A DNA stretch of 32,000 nt, taken from positions 1,230,001-1,262,000 of the forward strand of contig NZ_CP066019.1 of the NCBI RefSeq assembly GCF_016127575.1. Reading direction: 5' to 3'. This document shows positions 2,885 to 9,328 of the stretch, piece after piece. Numbering within the stretch: the first letter of the stretch is position 1; every line of letters starts with the position of its first letter. Origin of the DNA: Cupriavidus necator (GTDB taxonomy: Bacteria > Pseudomonadota > Gammaproteobacteria > Burkholderiales > Burkholderiaceae). Under the pieces are notes generated by a model, which searched no databases, was not told where the DNA came from, and saw only the letters and a program-made list of their open reading frames with translations. A program made the position numbers and the translations under genes.

Positions 2885-3577
2885 TCAGGACTGCGCGGTG
2901 GCTGCCTGCGCAAAGCGCGCTGCCAGCCAGGCGCCGATGGCGGCGATCTCTTCCAGGCAGACCGAATGGCCCATCGGATAGGTGCTCCAGGTCACCGGGT
3001 GCTGCCGCGCCTGCACGAAATCGCGGGCGGCGACGCCCAGCTGCAGCGGCACCACGTCGTCCTGCGTGCCATGGGCGGCGAACACGGGCGTGGTGGCGTT
3101 GGCGGCGCTGACCTCGGCCGCCAGCGCTTTCGGCGCAGGGATGTAGGTGGACAGCGCGACGATGCCGGCCAGCGTCTCGGCATGGCTCAGCCCGGCGGTG
3201 TAGGCAATCGCGCCGCCCTGCGAGAAGCCTGCCAGCACGATGCGGTGCGTGGGGATGCCACGGGCGTTCTCGCGCGCAATCAGTGCGCGAATGGCTTCGC
3301 AAGAGGCACGGATGCCGGCTTCATCGGCGCGTCGCCCGGATTCATCGAGGGAATAAATGTCATACCAGGCCGGCATGACATACCCGCCGTTGCAGGTCAC
3401 GGGGATAGCCGGCGCGTGCGGGAAGATAAAGCGCACGCCGGGCGCTGCGGGCAGGCGCAGCTCAGGCACGACCGGGGCGAAATCGCTGCCGTCGGCGCCC
3501 AGCCCATGCATCCAGATGACGGCGCAGGCGGGATTGGGCGCGGTTTCGAATTCGATCGCGGGCAGCAGTTCGCTCAT
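2885..3577 (-). CDS. Phospholipase/carboxylesterase-family alpha/beta hydrolase (about 230 aa)
   Basis: Internal start MSELLPAIEFE of track ORF 2885..3946, with AGGAA upstream. It has the GFSQGG nucleophile elbow and the WMHGLGADG and HGTQDDVVP motifs typical of this family. Confidence 0.85.
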   Translation of the reverse strand: MSELLPAIEFETAPNPACAVIWMHGLGADGSDFAPVVPELRLPAAPGVRFIFPHAPAIPVTCNGGYVMPAWYDIYSLDESGRRADEAGIRASCEAIRALIARENARGIPTHRIVLAGFSQGGAIAYTAGLSHAETLAGIVALSTYIPAPKALAAEVSAANATTPVFAAHGTQDDVVPLQLGVAARDFVQARQHPVTWSTYPMGHSVCLEEIAAIGAWLAARFAQAATAQS

Positions 3578-4134: not shown

Positions 4135-5139
4135 CTACTGCCTGCGCTCGCCGCTTGCTGTCGCCAATGTGCCTGTGCGACTGGTCGATGTGCCTGCCTG
4201 ATCCGCGTTGCCAGGCGGATCGCCTTCATATTTCGCGTCGTTTCCTGCCAACAGTGCCTGCATGGCATCGCCGTCCTGCGCGCGCACAAAGCGCAGGATC
4301 GGCGGCCAGAATGCCTCGATATGTTCTGGCAGGATGGCTGCGTCATGCGGCATGGCGTCCAGCATCACCAGCGCATGCAGATGCCTGGCCGCACGGGCCA
4401 CGCGTTCCGCGTGGGGTGGGACGATCACCGCGTCGTCCCGGCTGTGCACCACCAGCAGCGGCCGCTCCAGCCGGCTGGCACGCGCAGCGTTGTTCCACGG
4501 ATCCGGCAGCAGCCACGCGGCCCATGCGGGTATGCGCCCGGTCTGCACTGCGGCCAGGCGCGCCGAACTGAAGCCCGCCGCAATGACATAGCCGTCGGGC
4601 TGCGGATCGAAGCGCTGCGCCACCTCCAGCAGGATGCCGGATCCCAGCGAATGCCCCAGCACCACGCGCCGTTTTGCCTGCGGCGTGGCTGCCAGGAATT
4701 GCCGGTAGGCGGCCAGCGCATCCTCGCGCAGGCGGCGCACGCTTGGCCGCCCGCTGCTGCGGCCGTAGCCGCTGTAGTCGAAGACGTAGGAGGCGATGCC
4801 CGCGCCCGCCAGCATGGCCTGGACCGGGGCCCAGTCGGGCAGGCTCTCATTGTCGCCGTGGCACACCATCAGCGCTGGCGCTTCGGGGTCCGCGGCCGGC
4901 ATGAAGGCGGCGTGCAGGATGCGATTGCCGCTGGCGAACGTGGCATGGCGCACCGTCAGGGCTGAAATGTCGGGTGCTGCCGCGTCCTTTGTTTCATCCG
5001 TCGGCGTGACAAAGGCTTTGCGTTCTACCGCACGAAACAGTAGATGCCGCGCAACACCCGCGGCCACGGCGAGTGCCGCGGCGGTGGCGAGCCAGCGGTG
5101 GCGGGATTCCGGCTGAGCGGGGCGGGGGCCTTCAGGCAT
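4135..5139 (-). CDS. Alpha/beta hydrolase with N-terminal membrane anchor
   Basis: GHSLGS nucleophile elbow. The HSRDD and MPHD motifs are consistent with Ser-Asp-His triad spacing. N-terminal hydrophobic segment WLATAAALAVAAGVA. Confidence 0.8.
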   Translation of the reverse strand: MPEGPRPAQPESRHRWLATAAALAVAAGVARHLLFRAVERKAFVTPTDETKDAAAPDISALTVRHATFASGNRILHAAFMPAADPEAPALMVCHGDNESLPDWAPVQAMLAGAGIASYVFDYSGYGRSSGRPSVRRLREDALAAYRQFLAATPQAKRRVVLGHSLGSGILLEVAQRFDPQPDGYVIAAGFSSARLAAVQTGRIPAWAAWLLPDPWNNAARASRLERPLLVVHSRDDAVIVPPHAERVARAARHLHALVMLDAMPHDAAILPEHIEAFWPPILRFVRAQDGDAMQALLAGNDAKYEGDPPGNADQAGTSTSRTGTLATASGERRQ

Positions 5140-5289: not shown

Positions 5290-5318
5290 TTGACTATCTA
5301 CCTAGTAGTAGATAGCAT
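5290..5318 (+). promoter_or_regulatory. Sigma70-type promoter TTGACT-17nt-TAGCAT with embedded operator O1 (CTATCTAC-N6-GTAGATAG, 5294..5315)
   Basis: Near-consensus hexamers with a 17-nt spacer in an AT-rich island. The inverted repeat spans the spacer and overlaps the -10, which is classic repressor geometry. Confidence 0.6.
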
Positions 5319-5388
5319 TGAGTCCATGGCACCGCTGCACCGCCGGAAGCAAGCAAGAGCGGGCGGAAAAGTGGCGATCCCATCGCAA

Positions 5389-5409
5389 GACCGGCATGGT
5401 CATTTTTTT
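5389..5409 (+). terminator. Attenuator-like hairpin plus T7 tract inside the 5' leader (copy 1)
   Basis: GACCG-GCA-TGGTC followed by ATTTTTTT. The stem is short. The positional equivalent in copy 2 is stronger. Confidence 0.3.
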
Positions 5410-5423
5410 AGCACCTGTCATCT

Positions 5424-5437
5424 ATCTACTGGTAGAT
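5424..5437. promoter_or_regulatory. Operator-like palindrome O2, ATCTAC-TG-GTAGAT (copy 1 leader)
   Basis: It shares the ATCTAC/GTAGAT half-sites with O1. It is conserved in copy 2 as a perfect 14-bp palindrome. Confidence 0.5.
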
Positions 5438-5517: not shown

Positions 5518-5913
5518 ATGAATGCCAAGTTCGCCAAGACCCTGATCACCGCCGCCACCCTTGCCGCCGCACTGGCAGGTGGCGTGGCGCAAGCCGCCAG
5601 CGTGCAAGACAACACCTCGGCTGGCGACAAGTACGGCTACAGCTACCGCGCCGGCAAGTTCGACACCTTCACGGAAGGTGCCCGCACCGGCAAGTTCGAC
5701 CCGTTCACGGAAGGCGCCCGCGTCGGCAAGTTTGATCCGTACACCGACGGCGCCCGCGTCGGCAAGACCGATCCCTACACGGACGGGTACCGCACCGTAG
5801 CTGGCCTGGACCGTAGTGGCGTGTCGGCCGGGCCGGCCCGCAGCTTCGACCCGTACACGGACGGCGCGCGCGTCGGCAAGGCTGACCCCTACACCGACGG
5901 CGCCCTGGCTTGA
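5518..5913 (+). CDS. Secreted tandem-repeat protein (131 aa) built of 12-aa GK-x-DP(Y/F)T(D/E)GAR units
   Basis: AGGAG RBS 7 nt upstream. Sec signal peptide MNAKFAKTLITAATLAAALAGGVAQA / ASVQ. It carries repeats FDTFTEGARTGK, FDPFTEGARVGK, FDPYTDGARVGK and so on. It is a paralog of 7164..7784. Confidence 0.85.
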   Translation: MNAKFAKTLITAATLAAALAGGVAQAASVQDNTSAGDKYGYSYRAGKFDTFTEGARTGKFDPFTEGARVGKFDPYTDGARVGKTDPYTDGYRTVAGLDRSGVSAGPARSFDPYTDGARVGKADPYTDGALA

Positions 5914-5988
5914 TTGCTGCCGGCTGAGGCCGGCGGCCAACAACTTTACGGCGGCGGTCACGCTGACTGCCGTCCGATGGAGTCCATC

Positions 5989-6090
5989 ATGAGTTTGCGT
6001 GACAGTGTCCTGCTGCTTGGCGGATGGCTGGTGCTTTGCGTGACGAGTGGCTCGATGATCACCTTCGCCGCGCAGGTCCTGCCTGGTTAA
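5989..6090 (+). CDS. 33-aa single-pass membrane micropeptide (not in ORF track)
   Basis: GGAG 6 nt upstream of the ATG. Product MSLRDSVLLLGGWLVLCVTSGSMITFAAQVLPG. The paralog at 7859..7960 has the same length and at least seven synonymous third-position differences. Confidence 0.7.
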   Translation: MSLRDSVLLLGGWLVLCVTSGSMITFAAQVLPG

Positions 6091-6104
6091 AGCACATGCC
6101 TCAG

Positions 6105-6150
6105 ATGCCCCGGGCTAGGGAATTACCCCAGCCCCGGGGCATTTCGGCTT
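6105..6150 (+). terminator. GC-rich hairpin after the micro-ORF (possible terminator/insulator, copy 1 only)
   Basis: ATGCCCCGGGCT ... AGCCCCGGGGCAT forms a stem of about 12 bp with one bulge, followed by TTCGGCTT (a weak U tract). Confidence 0.4.
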
Positions 6151-6177
6151 GAGCGCCTATCTTCGCGTAGATAAACT
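6149..6177 (+). promoter_or_regulatory. Putative autoregulated promoter TTGAGC-17nt-TAAACT with operator O3 (TATCT-t-CGCG-t-AGATA, 6158..6173). It predicts a leaderless tetR mRNA
   Basis: Same geometry as the promoter at 5290..5318. The -10 ends 6 nt before the A of the ATG at 6184, and there is no SD upstream of that ATG. Confidence 0.45.
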
Positions 6178-6183
6178 GCTTTC

Positions 6184-6750
6184 ATGAAAACGCAATCAGT
6201 ACGCGAGCAACTGCTCGAGCACACCCTCGTCCTGATCCGCCGCCGCGGCTTCAACGGCTTCAGCTACCGCGACCTGGCGGAACTGGTGGGGGTCAAGACC
6301 TCCAGCATCCACTATTACTTCCCGTCCAAAGAGGACCTGGTACTGGAGGCGGTGAAGGAATACAGCGCCCGCCTGGCCGAGCGCATCCGCTCCATCGACA
6401 CCAGTCTGCCGGTCGCCGAGCAGGCGGCCATCTACCTGGCGCCGTTCCGCGCCAGCTGCGGCTCGGACCAGATCTGCCTGTGCGGCATGTTGTCGACCGA
6501 GACGCTGTGCCTGCCGGAGTCCGTGCACAAGCTGCTGCAGGGCTTCTTCCTGATGAACGAACAATGGCTGGCCGGCCTGCTGGAGCGGGCTCAGCCGCAG
6601 CGCAGCACGCCGTTCCCGGTGCCGCCGGCGCGGCTGGCACAGGTGGTGTTTGGCTCGCTGCAGAGCGGGCTGATTGCGGCACGCCTGTTCGGGACCTCCG
6701 ACCGGGTGGAAGCCGCTGCGGATACGCTGATGGCCGCCGTCGCCGGCTAA
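6184..6750 (+). CDS. TetR/AcrR-family transcriptional regulator (copy 1)
   Basis: N-terminal HTH FSYRDLAELVGVKTSSIHYYFPSKEDLV. Size is 188 aa. Confidence 0.9.
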   Translation: MKTQSVREQLLEHTLVLIRRRGFNGFSYRDLAELVGVKTSSIHYYFPSKEDLVLEAVKEYSARLAERIRSIDTSLPVAEQAAIYLAPFRASCGSDQICLCGMLSTETLCLPESVHKLLQGFFLMNEQWLAGLLERAQPQRSTPFPVPPARLAQVVFGSLQSGLIAARLFGTSDRVEAAADTLMAAVAG

Positions 6751-6781
6751 GGTTTTCGCGCAATATCAGTGGCGCGTCTGA

Positions 6782-6820
6782 AGCCGTCATGTGGCGCAAG
6801 CTGCATGGCGGCTTTTTTAT
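6782..6820 (+). terminator. Rho-independent terminator after tetR copy 1
   Basis: AGCCGTCATG ... CATGGCGGCT forms a 10-bp stem with one G-U pair, followed by TTTTTTAT. Confidence 0.7.
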
Positions 6821-6933: not shown

Positions 6934-6962
6934 TTGACTCTCTACCTAGTAGTAGATAGTAT
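6934..6962 (+). promoter_or_regulatory. Sigma70-type promoter TTGACT-17nt-TAGTAT with embedded operator O1' (CTCTCTAC-N6-GTAGATAG, 6938..6959)
   Basis: Hexamers and spacing are the same as in copy 1. The left operator arm has one mismatch. Confidence 0.6.
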
Positions 6963-7030
6963 TTGACTCATGGAAGCGCTGCACCGCCGGCAACAAGCAA
7001 GACAAGGCGAAAACGTGGCGGTCCCATTGC

Positions 7031-7053
7031 ATGACCGGAGGCGGTCATTTTTT
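7031..7053 (+). terminator. Attenuator-like intrinsic terminator in the 5' leader (copy 2)
   Basis: ATGACCG-GAGG-CGGTCAT forms a perfect 7-bp stem followed by TTTTTT. Confidence 0.45.
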
Positions 7054-7069
7054 CGAGGCCGAGTATCTA

Positions 7070-7083
7070 TCTACTAGTAGATG
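7070..7083. promoter_or_regulatory. Operator O2', perfect 14-bp palindrome ATCTACTAGTAGAT
   Basis: Read directly. It occupies the same leader position as 5424..5437. Confidence 0.55.
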
Positions 7084-7163: not shown

Positions 7164-7784
7164 ATGACCAAGATCACCAAGACCCTGATTACCGCCGCCA
7201 CCCTTGCCGCCGCGCTCGCGGGCGGTGTTGCGCAAGCGGCCAGCGTGCAGGACAGCACCTTCACCGGCGACAAGTACGGCTACACCTTCCGCACCGGCAA
7301 GTTCGACACCTTCACGGAAGGCGCCCGCACCGGCAAGTTTGATCCGTTCACCGAAGGCGCGCGCGTTGGCAAGGCCGATCCCTACACCGATGGTGCCCGC
7401 GTTGGCAAGGCTGATCCCTACACCGACGGTGCCCGCACGGTAGCGGGCCTGGACCGCAGCGGTGTCTCGGCCCAACCGTCGCGCAGCTTCGACCCGTACA
7501 CCGATGGTGCCCGCGTTGGCAAGCCCGATCCCTACACCGACGGTGCCCGCACGGTAGCCGGCCTGGACCGCAGCGGTGTTTCGGCCCAACCGTCGCGCAG
7601 CTTCGACCCGTACACCGATGGTGCCCGCGTTGGCAAGCCTGATCCCTACACCGACGGTGCCCGCACGGTAGCCGGCCTGGACCGCAGCGGTGTTTCGGCC
7701 CAACCGTCGCGCAGCTTCGATCCGTACACCGACGGTGCGCGCGTGGGCAAGGCTGACCCTTATACCGACGGCGCCATCGCCTGA
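7164..7784 (+). CDS. Secreted tandem-repeat protein (206 aa), expanded paralog of 5518..5913
   Basis: Signal peptide MTKITKTLITAATLAAALAGGVAQA / ASVQ is nearly identical to copy 1. It has the same 12-aa DPYTDGAR units plus three 38-aa super-repeats. Confidence 0.85.
   Translation: MTKITKTLITAATLAAALAGGVAQAASVQDSTFTGDKYGYTFRTGKFDTFTEGARTGKFDPFTEGARVGKADPYTDGARVGKADPYTDGARTVAGLDRSGVSAQPSRSFDPYTDGARVGKPDPYTDGARTVAGLDRSGVSAQPSRSFDPYTDGARVGKPDPYTDGARTVAGLDRSGVSAQPSRSFDPYTDGARVGKADPYTDGAIA
7428..7769 (+). repeat. In-frame tandem repeat, 3 x 114 nt (38 aa: GARTVAGLDRSGVSAQPSRSFDPYTDGARVGKPDPYTD)
   Basis: Units start at 7428, 7542 and 7656. Units 1 and 2 differ at three positions by my reading, all synonymous third-codon positions. 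Unit 3 diverges in its 3' half. Confidence 0.9.
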
Positions 7785-7858
7785 GAGCCGGCCGGCGTAA
7801 TGCCGGCCATTGAAAACCGCCGGGCCGCCTGGGTGCGGCCCGTCTTCAGGAGTTGATC

Positions 7859-7960
7859 ATGCGTTGGCGTGACACTGCGCTGATCCTTGGCGGATGGGTA
7901 GGGCTTTGCTTCGCAAGCGGGTCCCTCATCACGCTGATCGCACAAACGCTGCCGGCCTGA
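7859..7960 (+). CDS. 33-aa single-pass membrane micropeptide (not in ORF track), paralog of 5989..6090
   Basis: AGGAG 7 nt upstream of the ATG. Product MRWRDTALILGGWVGLCFASGSLITLIAQTLPA. Confidence 0.7.
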   Translation: MRWRDTALILGGWVGLCFASGSLITLIAQTLPA

Positions 7961-7993
7961 ACGGCGCGGCAGCAAGACGATGGAGTTGATGCC

Positions 7994-8581
7994 ATGAACA
8001 CCCGATCCGTACGCGAGCAACTGGTCGAACATGCGCTGGTGCTGATCCGCCGCAGGGGGTTCAATGGCTTCAGCTACCGCGACCTGGCCGACCTGGTCGG
8101 GGTCAAGACCTCGAGCATCCACTATTACTTCCCGTCCAAGGACGACCTGGTGCTGGCAGCGGTGCGCGAATACGGCACCCGCAGGCGGGCGCGCCTGGAT
8201 GCGATCGACGCCAGCCTGCCGCCCGCGGAGCAGGCGCGGCAATACCTTGCGCCTTTGCGCGCGGGTGCCGGCACCGACCAGGCTTGCCTGGTGGGCATGC
8301 TGTCGGCCGACGTGCTGATGCTGCCGGACGCGGTGCGCGCCGCGATGCAGGACTTTATCCGGCTCAATGAGCAATGGCTGGCCAGCTTGTTCGAGCGCGC
8401 CGCGGCGCAGCGCAAGTCGCCCTATCCGATTCCGCCGCAGCAGCTGGCGCAGGTGGTGTTCGGGGCGTTGCAGAACGGCTTGATCAGTGCGCGGCTGTTT
8501 GGCACGCCGGACCGGCTCGATGCCGCGGCGGCGCTGCTGACCAGCGCCATGCCGGCGGAGCAGGCCTTAGCCGCCGCTTAG
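7994..8581 (+). CDS. TetR/AcrR-family transcriptional regulator (copy 2)
   Basis: GGAG RBS. The HTH FSYRDLADLVGVKTSSIHYYFPSKDDLV is almost identical to copy 1, while the C-terminal half is clearly diverged. Confidence 0.9.
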   Translation: MNTRSVREQLVEHALVLIRRRGFNGFSYRDLADLVGVKTSSIHYYFPSKDDLVLAAVREYGTRRRARLDAIDASLPPAEQARQYLAPLRAGAGTDQACLVGMLSADVLMLPDAVRAAMQDFIRLNEQWLASLFERAAAQRKSPYPIPPQQLAQVVFGALQNGLISARLFGTPDRLDAAAALLTSAMPAEQALAAA

Positions 8582-9328
8582 TGTCAGTATCACCGAGCCG
8601 GCGACGGCATTGCACAGCCACTGCGGGTCATCGTGGGGCAGGTCATGCCCGGCCCAGTGGTGCGTCAGCAACTGCGCGTCCCAGGCTTGCGCGATGCGCG
8701 CCGAGCACACCGGGTTGACCAGGCGGTCTGCCGCCGAGGCAAGCAGCAGCGCCGGGCAGCGCGGCGCACTGGCGGGAGCGCGATAGCGGGCAGCGGCCAG
8801 CAACTGTGCCAGCGCGGCTTGGCGGCTCACCGGCGCGTCGGCGGCAATGGCCTGCCAGGTCTCGAGATCGCGTGCCAGCGTATCGGTGCGGGCACAGGTG
8901 ATGGCATGGATGGTCCGCTCGCAGTACGCGCGGTCCTGCCAGCGCTGCGCCACGCGCAGCAGCTTGCCCCAGTTGCGCGGCCGCAGGCGCTGTGCGGGCG
9001 TGCAGAACGGCCGCATGCTGGTATTGACCAGCACCAGGCCGCCGACTTCCTCCGGATAGGCGCTGGCCCACTCGGTCGCGGCCATCGCACCCAGCGACAT
9101 CGCCAGCACGCGGTAGGGGCCGTGCGCGCCGGTGGCCGACAACTGGCGCCGCACCGCGGTGACCATCTCAGGCACGCTCCACGGCGCCGGCTGCGCCGAC
9201 AGCGCGCCGTTGCCGGGCAGGTCGGGCAGCAGCGGCCGGCCCAGCCCGGCCGCTTCCCAACGCGCCGGCAGGCTTCCCCAGTGGCGCGATTCCCGCGTCA
9301 GTCCCCGCAAGAATACCCATCGGCTCAT
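8567..9328 (-). CDS. Alpha/beta hydrolase
   Basis: AMSLGA nucleophile elbow and a C-terminal WAGHDLPHDDP (His) motif. Its start overlaps the upstream stop (ATGA). Confidence 0.8.
   Translation of the reverse strand: MSRWVFLRGLTRESRHWGSLPARWEAAGLGRPLLPDLPGNGALSAQPAPWSVPEMVTAVRRQLSATGAHGPYRVLAMSLGAMAATEWASAYPEEVGGLVLVNTSMRPFCTPAQRLRPRNWGKLLRVAQRWQDRAYCERTIHAITCARTDTLARDLETWQAIAADAPVSRQAALAQLLAAARYRAPASAPRCPALLLASAADRLVNPVCSARIAQAWDAQLLTHHWAGHDLPHDDPQWLCNAVAGSVILTLSGG

Follow-up and report, generated by a model that had tools for sequence, protein, structure and literature searches.

CydX, AcrZ, and KdpF are small single-pass accessory proteins of about 30 to 50 residues, with one helix oriented with the N terminus in and the C terminus out. 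Proteins of this type have their own ribosome-binding sites, are encoded beside the genes that they serve, and are often missed or misnamed. A further small peptide, CydZ (DUF2474; PF10617), is encoded after cydB or cioB in the operons for cyanide-insensitive bd oxidases (PMC4325964, PMC5322542). The CopQ-like family comprises proteins with a signal sequence and a repeated RDXXTDG motif, which are strongly induced by metals and confined to Cupriavidus and Ralstonia (PMC2864759). Among its members (CopQ, CzcJ, MmrQ, MmmQ, MmtQ, and MmsQ, as well as PrsQ1 and PrsQ2), mmsQ was reported to be strongly metal induced (PMC2864759), and PrsQ1 and PrsQ2 are required for evolved silver resistance (PMC7380067). 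Here we analyze two very short open reading frames (ORFs), termed micro-ORFs A and B, in a 32,000-nucleotide (nt) stretch of Cupriavidus necator DNA (contig NZ_CP066019.1, positions 1,230,001 to 1,262,000; below, the window, to which all positions refer unless another locus is named). Each follows a gene of the CopQ-like family, and that family is one of the neighboring gene and not of the micro-ORF, whose product has neither the repeat nor a signal peptide cleavage site. Comparison with related loci indicates that the micro-ORFs are almost certainly genuine genes.

Micro-ORFs, their relatives, and selection on the reading frame

Micro-ORF A (5989..6090, + strand) and micro-ORF B (7859..7960, + strand) each consist of 33 codons and a stop, and their products are MSLRDSVLLLGGWLVLCVTSGSMITFAAQVLPG, a predicted single-pass membrane protein, and MRWRDTALILGGWVGLCFASGSLITLIAQTLPA, respectively. 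A Shine-Dalgarno motif lies 6 nt upstream of the ATG in both cases (GGAG at 5979..5982 for A and AGGAG at 7848..7852 for B, both on the + strand). The two peptides are identical at 19 of 33 residues (M1, R4, D5, L8, L10, G11, G12, W13, L16, C17, S20, G21, S22, I24, T25, A28, Q29, L31, and P32). Codon by codon, 12 are identical, 14 differ nonsynonymously, and 7 form synonymous pairs (AGT/AGC, GGC/GGG, TCG/TCC, ACC/ACG, GCG/GCA, CAG/CAA, and CCT/CCG). An initial annotation, made from the sequence of the window, had described two 33-codon frames with properly spaced Shine-Dalgarno sequences, a common peptide pattern, at least seven synonymous codon differences, and a position downstream of each repeat protein gene; translation of the two intervals and their comparison bear out all of these points, and the synonymous pairs are exactly the seven that it named. 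The ratio of nonsynonymous to synonymous substitution rates (dN/dS; Nei-Gojobori method) between A and B is 0.32, at a dS of about 0.97, which is near saturation. Both micro-ORFs are part of a tandemly duplicated three-gene cassette that encodes a secreted repeat protein, the micro-protein, and a TetR regulator: micro-ORF A lies between the repeat protein gene at 5518..5913 and the tetR gene at 6184..6750, and micro-ORF B lies between those at 7164..7784 and 7994..8581. When cassettes A and B are aligned, the micro-ORF is gapless, and the adjoining spacers are poorly conserved and contain indels, among them a 60-nt insertion 3' of micro-ORF A.

A tblastn search with the 33-mer, as the initial annotation had proposed, was run against a plasmid and chromid collection and matched five Cupriavidus replicons. 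The four loci fetched from this search (L001 to L004 in our numbering, with L001 from Cupriavidus metallidurans CH34) all have a syntenic 33-codon ORF with a GGAG motif between the repeat protein and TetR genes. One CH34 copy was matched, on the chromid beside mmsQ, and no other CH34 record in the collection, from which the CH34 chromosome is absent, was matched. Ralstonia matches at an E of about 5 and 36% identity were taken as noise. The TetR proteins were also used as bait in contigs from one genome per species, so that the micro-ORF itself was not selected on, and this search recovered 78 loci, nearly all of them from Cupriavidus. Copies of the micro-ORF were sought in all six-frame translations of the loci with a profile of six known peptides, and 89 were found, distributed over the window and 70 of the 82 public loci examined. 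All 89 have the orientation of the cassette and are free of in-frame stops. Exactly 33 codons are present in 83 of them, the remaining lengths being 32, 34, 34, 34, 34, and 35 codons; the rare changes of length are thus multiples of 3. The start is ATG in almost all copies, a GGAG-like motif (mostly GGAG) stands 6 to 9 nt upstream, and a motif similar to that of micro-ORF A recurs with the same spacing across the 89 copies. The length of the micro-ORF stays constant over spacers that vary from 37 to 212 nt on its upstream side and from 29 to 177 nt on its downstream side. In several loci (e.g., L063 and L050), a stop lies in frame one to a few codons 5' of the ATG, which fixes the start codon at this ATG and excludes the longer starts chosen by some annotation pipelines. 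Such conservation of start, ribosome-binding site, and length across relatives is that of a protein-coding gene.

The same narrow distribution emerged from larger collections. A word-indexed search of 5.8 billion proteins, for which the query was a natural 58-residue in-frame extension aligned with the micro-protein family, returned 60 clusters; no Pfam domain is present in any of them, and every named cluster belongs to Cupriavidus. When 1.84 billion cluster representatives were scanned exhaustively with HMMER, just 18 reached an E of ≤1e-3. Megablast of the cassette against plasmids gave partial Cupriavidus matches only, and the PLSDB records of these chromids carry no annotation. By these sequence comparisons, the micro-protein family is real, narrow, and uncharacterized.

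We then evaluated the selection acting on the frame in 81 distinct 33-codon DNA versions from related loci, which encode 59 distinct peptides. Frame +1 is free of stops in all 81. In the dN/dS test that the initial annotation had called for, the aggregated Nei-Gojobori value is 0.22 for close pairs and 0.34 to 0.40 for distant pairs, and when all six frames are scored on the same pairs, the micro-ORF frame has the lowest value (0.24), followed by an antisense shadow frame (0.45) and the other four (1.4 to 2.4). Purifying selection that is specific to one frame in this way is characteristic of a protein-coding gene. The peptide MSLRDSILLLGGWLVLCVTSGSMITFAAQVLPG is specified by 12 different DNAs at 13 loci, and all 12 of the variable nucleotides among them are synonymous. 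Within orthologue groups, column identity falls in the order of codon positions 2, 1, and 3 with zero gaps, and the flanks do contain gaps. RNAalifold applied to 20 diverse copies gave essentially no consensus structure (−1.06 kcal/mol, four pairs), and Rfam had no match anywhere in the whole window. The claim that selection acts on the peptide rather than on the RNA is therefore sustained by the lowest dN/dS in the +1 frame, the synonymous-only variants, and the lack of RNA structure, and we attribute the conservation of the micro-ORF to its reading frame. Of the two observations that the initial annotation had named as contrary to coding and that can be sought in sequence, disruption of the frame in orthologues is essentially absent (the cassettes examined include two degenerate copies, L047 and L049, and a few clean losses), and overlapping conserved RNA structure was found neither by folding nor in Rfam.

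That the micro-ORF is no gene but a frame open by chance, or an RNA or DNA element that is itself conserved, is a concern in GC-rich genomes, in which spurious open frames are many, and an antisense frame is open here too. Frame-specific purifying selection, the fixed length, the conserved start and ribosome-binding site, and the lack of RNA structure or an Rfam match all argue against such a non-gene, which we consider scarcely credible. The micro-ORF may serve as a worked example of how the reality of a protein of <35 residues is established from comparative data alone.

The predicted membrane product and its DUF2474 label

The initial annotation had called the product a transmembrane micro-protein, and three kinds of prediction uphold this. 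The 19-residue Kyte-Doolittle maximum is 1.85 to 1.97. Each of the 65 distinct peptides carries a K or an R among its first 7 positions; the last 8 contain a mean of 0.09 K/R and 0 D/E. AlphaFold2 modeling with the family alignment gave one helix spanning residues 3 to 30 at a mean predicted local distance difference test (pLDDT) score of 78.8. A hydrophobic helical span and a positive-inside charge bias, the two marks of a single-pass membrane protein, are thus both predicted, and the product is very probably a membrane helix; the predicted topology places its N terminus in and its C terminus out. In this model, a short cytoplasmic N terminus with a basic residue (MxLRD) would precede an inner-membrane helix of about residues 6 to 28 with small or polar positions (GGW ... 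C ... SG ... Q), followed by a periplasmic tail of 4 to 5 residues. The short N-terminal MxLRD motif is conserved, as are L8, G12, W13 (Y in one subfamily), S20, G21, and L31, usually C17, and usually Q29. We infer that the conserved positions form a small/polar face of the kind used in helix-helix packing. A reading of the Cys as that of a lipoprotein was rejected, since L rather than G, A, or S precedes it and it is not conserved throughout the family. Scans of the micro-ORF peptides against Pfam and NCBIfam gave no match; Blr_divisome (E = 0.38) was rejected as noise, and a PDB sequence search returned just monocarboxylate transporter helices (E ≥ 0.16), rejected as hydrophobic noise.

A very short and very hydrophobic peptide (grand average of hydropathy [GRAVY], about 0.9 to 1.3) also recalls the small hydrophobic toxins of the type I kind or other membrane-perturbing peptides. 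The micro-ORF, however, is read in the sense direction within a stress operon and is preceded by a good ribosome-binding site; it has been tandemly duplicated and vertically inherited, and a scan of the region found no antisense promoter, so that we regard a toxin as very unlikely.

One part of the initial annotation, the description of the micro-ORFs as unannotated, does not hold for public records. Both window peptides, and others that were checked, have exact counterparts in the public protein collection, where the names are "hypothetical protein" or "DUF2474 domain-containing protein," and both exact window peptides are deposited as C. necator proteins. Deposited examples are XYI47702.1 in C. 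necator and Rmet_6694 (ADC45277.1) in C. metallidurans CH34; other public records use longer, unsupported starts that result in products of 37 to 75 residues. Rmet_6694, which is encoded between mmsQ (Rmet_4908) and a TetR gene, and the deposited Cupriavidus hypothetical proteins are 33-residue members of the same family, orthologues or paralogues of the window peptides with no structural difference from them. A full-text literature search for Rmet_6694 retrieved no paper, and for no member of the family did we find a description, a family model, or an experiment; a literature search for ribosome profiling (Ribo-seq) or small-protein work in Cupriavidus retrieved nothing relevant. The supplements of CH34 omics papers, searched for Rmet_6694, Rmet_4908, and mmsQ, provided one useful match, the mmsQ transcription start considered below.

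The DUF2474 name, which NCBI and UniRef give to several identical or near-identical peptides, would make the micro-protein a relative of CydZ. The two do share a length below about 60 residues, one helix, and a Trp near the helix start (PMC4325964). Nevertheless, PF10617 gave no match at an E of ≤10 to any of 12 distinct micro-ORF peptides (gathering score, 26.6 bits), whereas it scores genuine CydZ proteins, including two from Cupriavidus, at 19 to 64 bits. Alignment of the micro-protein and CydZ family alignments with hhalign gave a probability of 2.6%, and reciprocal searches with hidden Markov models (HMMs) and all filters off reached at most 2.9 and 8.2 bits. CydZ proteins are 35 to 64 residues long, have a W-x4-W motif, are basic in their C-terminal half, and follow cydB or cioB; the W-x4-W motif is absent from the micro-protein, and the micro-ORF never lies beside cydAB or cioAB but has a CopQ-like gene upstream in 88 of 89 copies and in all of the variant contexts examined. 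Canonical CydZ is, moreover, already present in the cio operons of Cupriavidus. With Pfam match, profile similarity, and cydB/cioB context all lacking, the label is unsupported, and it is highly improbable that the micro-protein is a DUF2474/CydZ protein. The name implies a cytochrome bd oxidase subunit, for which our analysis gives no support, and the family deserves a model of its own.

The three-gene cassette and its regulation

The genes upstream of the micro-ORFs encode mmsQ-like secreted repeat proteins of the CopQ family: A (5518..5913, + strand) has 131 residues, a signal peptide, and six copies of the xDxxT[DE]G repeat, and B (7164..7784, + strand) has 206 residues, its gene containing 3.5 copies of a 114-nt unit that are 94% identical. 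The xDxxT[DE]GA repeats of these genes are organized as 36-nt and 114-nt tandem units, and the repeat array of protein B (7376-7775) is a recent internal expansion that accounts for its 206 residues as against 131. The features of the CopQ-like family, i.e., a signal peptide, xDxxTDG motifs in at least 3 to 4 repeats, and restriction to Cupriavidus and Ralstonia, are all seen in these genes, the loci being nearly all from Cupriavidus, and in CH34 the orthologous gene is mmsQ (Rmet_4908). A repeat protein gene lies directly 5' of the micro-ORF in 88 of the 89 copies, and the single exception is at the edge of its locus.

Downstream, TetR-family regulators A (6184..6750, + strand) and B (7994..8581, + strand) both match PF00440 (TetR_N; E = 1e-11 and 2e-11 in the two), as expected of TetR proteins, and their C-terminal regions match TetR_C_13 weakly in A and at 29.1 bits in B. 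Cassette A has a promoter-like site at 5290..5318 (+ strand; TTGACT-17-TAGCAT), with the palindrome TCTACCTAGTAGTAGA, the putative TetR operator O1, between the −35 and −10 hexamers (5297-5312), and with a second palindrome, TCTACTGGTAGA, the putative operator O2, in the 5' leader (5425..5436, + strand). Cassette B has the same arrangement: a promoter-like site at 6934..6962 (+ strand; TTGACT-17-TAGTAT), an operator-like palindrome O1 at 6941-6956, and TCTACTAGTAGA, the putative O2, in the leader at 7070..7081 (+ strand). The second palindromes lie about 105 to 110 nt farther 3'. The pattern TCTAC-N(0-10)-GTAGA occurs 4 times in the 32 kb, all in the two leaders, versus 0.03 expected by chance. 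A terminator-like hairpin with a T run at 6780..6815 (+ strand), after tetR-A, ends cassette A. The start published as TSS_1570574+3 and attributed to mmsQ (Rmet_4908), with a leader of 223 nt, corresponds to L001 position 2210, 224 nt 5' of the repeat protein ATG, and at this mapped CH34 start, the promoter and palindrome are arranged as in the window. The ATCTAC/GTAGAT palindromes are probably the operators of the cassette's TetR, and the natural reading of the arrangement is a TetR-repressed, autoregulated operon. A weaker look-alike palindrome, TATCTTCGCGTAGATA, lies at about 6148-6163, just 5' of tetR-A.

The leaders show further features. The mapped CH34 start coincides with the A of an ATG, and the window leaders have an ATG at the equivalent positions 5326 and 6970. 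A leaderless short ORF at the mmsQ start is therefore possible, MDDAMQQSSPQHQADPRNTKSFVSTGRRSFF followed by a stop in CH34 and products beginning MAPLHRRKQARAGG and MEALHRRQQARQGE in the window (leader ORF regions, 5326-5410 and 6970-7060 in the window and 2210-2305 in L001). A leader hairpin is followed by a run of 7 to 8 T residues (5389-5401, then ATTTTTTT; 7031-7048, then TTTTTT), and within the 5' untranslated region of about 195 to 224 nt, this combination looks like an attenuator.

Within the cassette, strong GC-rich hairpins without a T run occupy the spacer between the repeat protein stop and the micro-ORF (window positions 5908-5988 and 7780-7858 and L001 positions 2929-3000; z = −4.8, −3.0, and −2.7), and another hairpin lies 3' of micro-ORF A (6088-6183; z = −5.1). 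The presence of the spacer hairpins is conserved and their sequence is not; they may act in transcript processing or stability, or as partial terminators by which expression within the operon becomes unequal. The hairpin after micro-ORF A, as a strong structure in front of tetR, also bears on the view that the micro-ORF is an upstream ORF or leader peptide, the translation of which, rather than its product, controls tetR by coupling or attenuation. The start of tetR does lie 29 to 177 nt 3' of the micro-ORF in most loci, and no separate transcription start for tetR is listed at CH34 positions 1,571,000 to 1,571,499, which include the micro-ORF. Yet the amino acid sequence is under purifying selection with its membrane helix features conserved, the gap before tetR varies and exceeds what tight coupling would allow, and a micro-ORF with the same features is kept where no tetR follows (L083 to L094). 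We therefore consider a leader peptide quite unlikely.

The last of these observations comes from alternative layouts (L083 to L085, L089 to L094, and L086), in all of which the adjacency of the MmsQ-like gene and the micro-ORF is kept. In a divergent metagenomic layout, a CecR_C-type TetR gene precedes the MmsQ-like gene and the micro-ORF, which face a large hybrid histidine kinase gene; this TetR gene adjoins a divergent pair encoding a major facilitator superfamily protein and a resistance-nodulation-division adaptor. In a different layout, genes for a 152-residue multihelix membrane protein and MipA come after the MmsQ-like gene and the micro-ORF. The CecR_C-type TetR is upstream in L083 to L092, and L086 has no TetR. 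The micro-protein subtypes follow the clades of the TetR tree, which indicates that the cassette has been inherited and duplicated as a unit. L023, L078, and L082, which have no micro-ORF, also have no repeat protein gene 5' of the TetR gene.

These patterns also bear on the view of the micro-protein as a membrane signaling cofactor that would relay stress or the status of MmsQ to TetR, for instance by sequestering or inducing it through MxLRD. The three genes are coinherited, with micro-protein subtypes following TetR clades, and conservation extends to the short N-terminal motif; TetR can also be induced by artificial peptides (the "Tip" peptides). On the other hand, just about 5 residues would be cytoplasmic, a TetR of this type is not obligatory (it is of the CecR_C type and upstream in L083 to L092, and there is none in L086), and no natural precedent was retrieved. 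Such a cofactor appears unlikely.

The duplicated cassette is flanked by opposite-strand alpha/beta-hydrolase genes (4135-5139 and 8567-9328, both on the − strand). The wider window contains genes for a GlcNAc (N-acetylglucosamine) 2-epimerase-like protein, an M14 carboxypeptidase, and a HAD hydrolase, and a survey of it provided no recognizable metal resistance determinant and no functional clue.

A candidate accessory of the MmsQ operon and its known counterparts

Taken together, the explanation that we favor, and hold to be rather probable from the sequence evidence, is that the micro-ORF is a translated gene for a 33-residue inner-membrane accessory of the MmsQ operon. It would be the second cistron of a compact, tandemly duplicated, Cupriavidus-specific operon with the order promoter with palindromic operators, periplasmic MmsQ-type repeat protein, micro-protein, and TetR regulator. 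The genes of the cassette would form one transcript, which the cassette's TetR would repress at the ATCTAC/GTAGAT palindromes; metal or envelope stress would induce it, in line with the published behavior of CH34 mmsQ. The micro-protein itself would insert into the inner membrane as an accessory of the MmsQ module, most plausibly with its small-residue face packed helix to helix against itself or another membrane protein. The initial annotation had suggested a membrane partner, anchor, or sensor for the secreted repeat protein or a small regulatory or toxic peptide. Of these, the role of a partner gains the most support, since adjacency to the repeat protein gene is the one invariant; none of the suggested roles, whether partner, anchor, sensor, regulatory, or toxic, is separable from the others by sequence analysis. 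This invariance, together with the few losses, makes the micro-protein look like a dependent accessory of the MmsQ-type protein and not the reverse, and the best inference is that it is a membrane accessory of the MmsQ envelope/metal stress module. That it is functionally coupled to MmsQ itself we propose tentatively, leaning slightly against it.

Several observations weigh against this explanation. The strong hairpins between the repeat protein gene and the micro-ORF suggest that the expression of the two may be uncoupled. The mature repeat protein is soluble and lacks Cys, and with about 5 micro-protein residues in the periplasm, a stable complex of the two is not obvious. Some subfamilies of the micro-protein have S, T, or A in place of the membrane Cys. 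MmsQ-like/TetR cassettes without the micro-ORF exist, namely, a monophyletic TetR clade (L055, L067, and L069 to L072), in which the repeat proteins end in FDVFT[EQ]GANA, plus L030 and L076. The copies in L047 (3830-3931) and L049 (3749-3931) carry substitutions that break the helix or introduce charge (W to R, S to G, and prolines), and both may be in decay. A search of the searchable supplementary tables of CH34 omics papers did not find Rmet_6694. Finally, antisense frame −2 is open in all 81 DNA versions of the micro-ORF. As a gene, this frame was rejected as a GC-rich shadow frame, given its higher dN/dS (0.45) and its lack of a conserved start or stop; open antisense shadow frames are usual in GC-rich DNA. 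In the window, long antisense open frames at 7760-8374 and 5958-6062 (both on the − strand) overlap the micro-ORFs and tetR-B.

Few Cupriavidus genes are induced by metals as strongly as the CopQ-like genes (copQ, czcJ, mmsQ, prsQ2, and others), and the micro-protein is obligatorily linked to one branch of these and to a dedicated TetR with putative operators, so that the three genes offer a tractable module. A bolder proposal, to which we assign little likelihood, is that the micro-protein is the missing membrane component of CopQ-like stress modules: an oligomerizing helix, with its GG..C..SG face, that either would form a thiol/Ser-lined soft-metal site or would couple the state of MmsQ or of the membrane to the release of TetR. 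If the coupling version were true, the periplasmic repeat protein, the 33-residue helix, and the cytoplasmic repressor would constitute a three-part sensor. The relevance of the family is mainly to metal resistance in Cupriavidus and to the annotation of small proteins.

In its comparison with known systems, the micro-protein resembles CydX, AcrZ, and KdpF in size, in having one helix with a predicted N-in/C-out orientation, in its own ribosome-binding site, and in being encoded in an operon. It differs from them in what the operon offers as a partner: CydX, AcrZ, and KdpF bind a large membrane complex of the same operon, whereas the only other products of the operon here are a secreted repeat protein and a cytoplasmic repressor. 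With this difference, it is a well-supported further case of a small single-pass membrane protein encoded in an operon.

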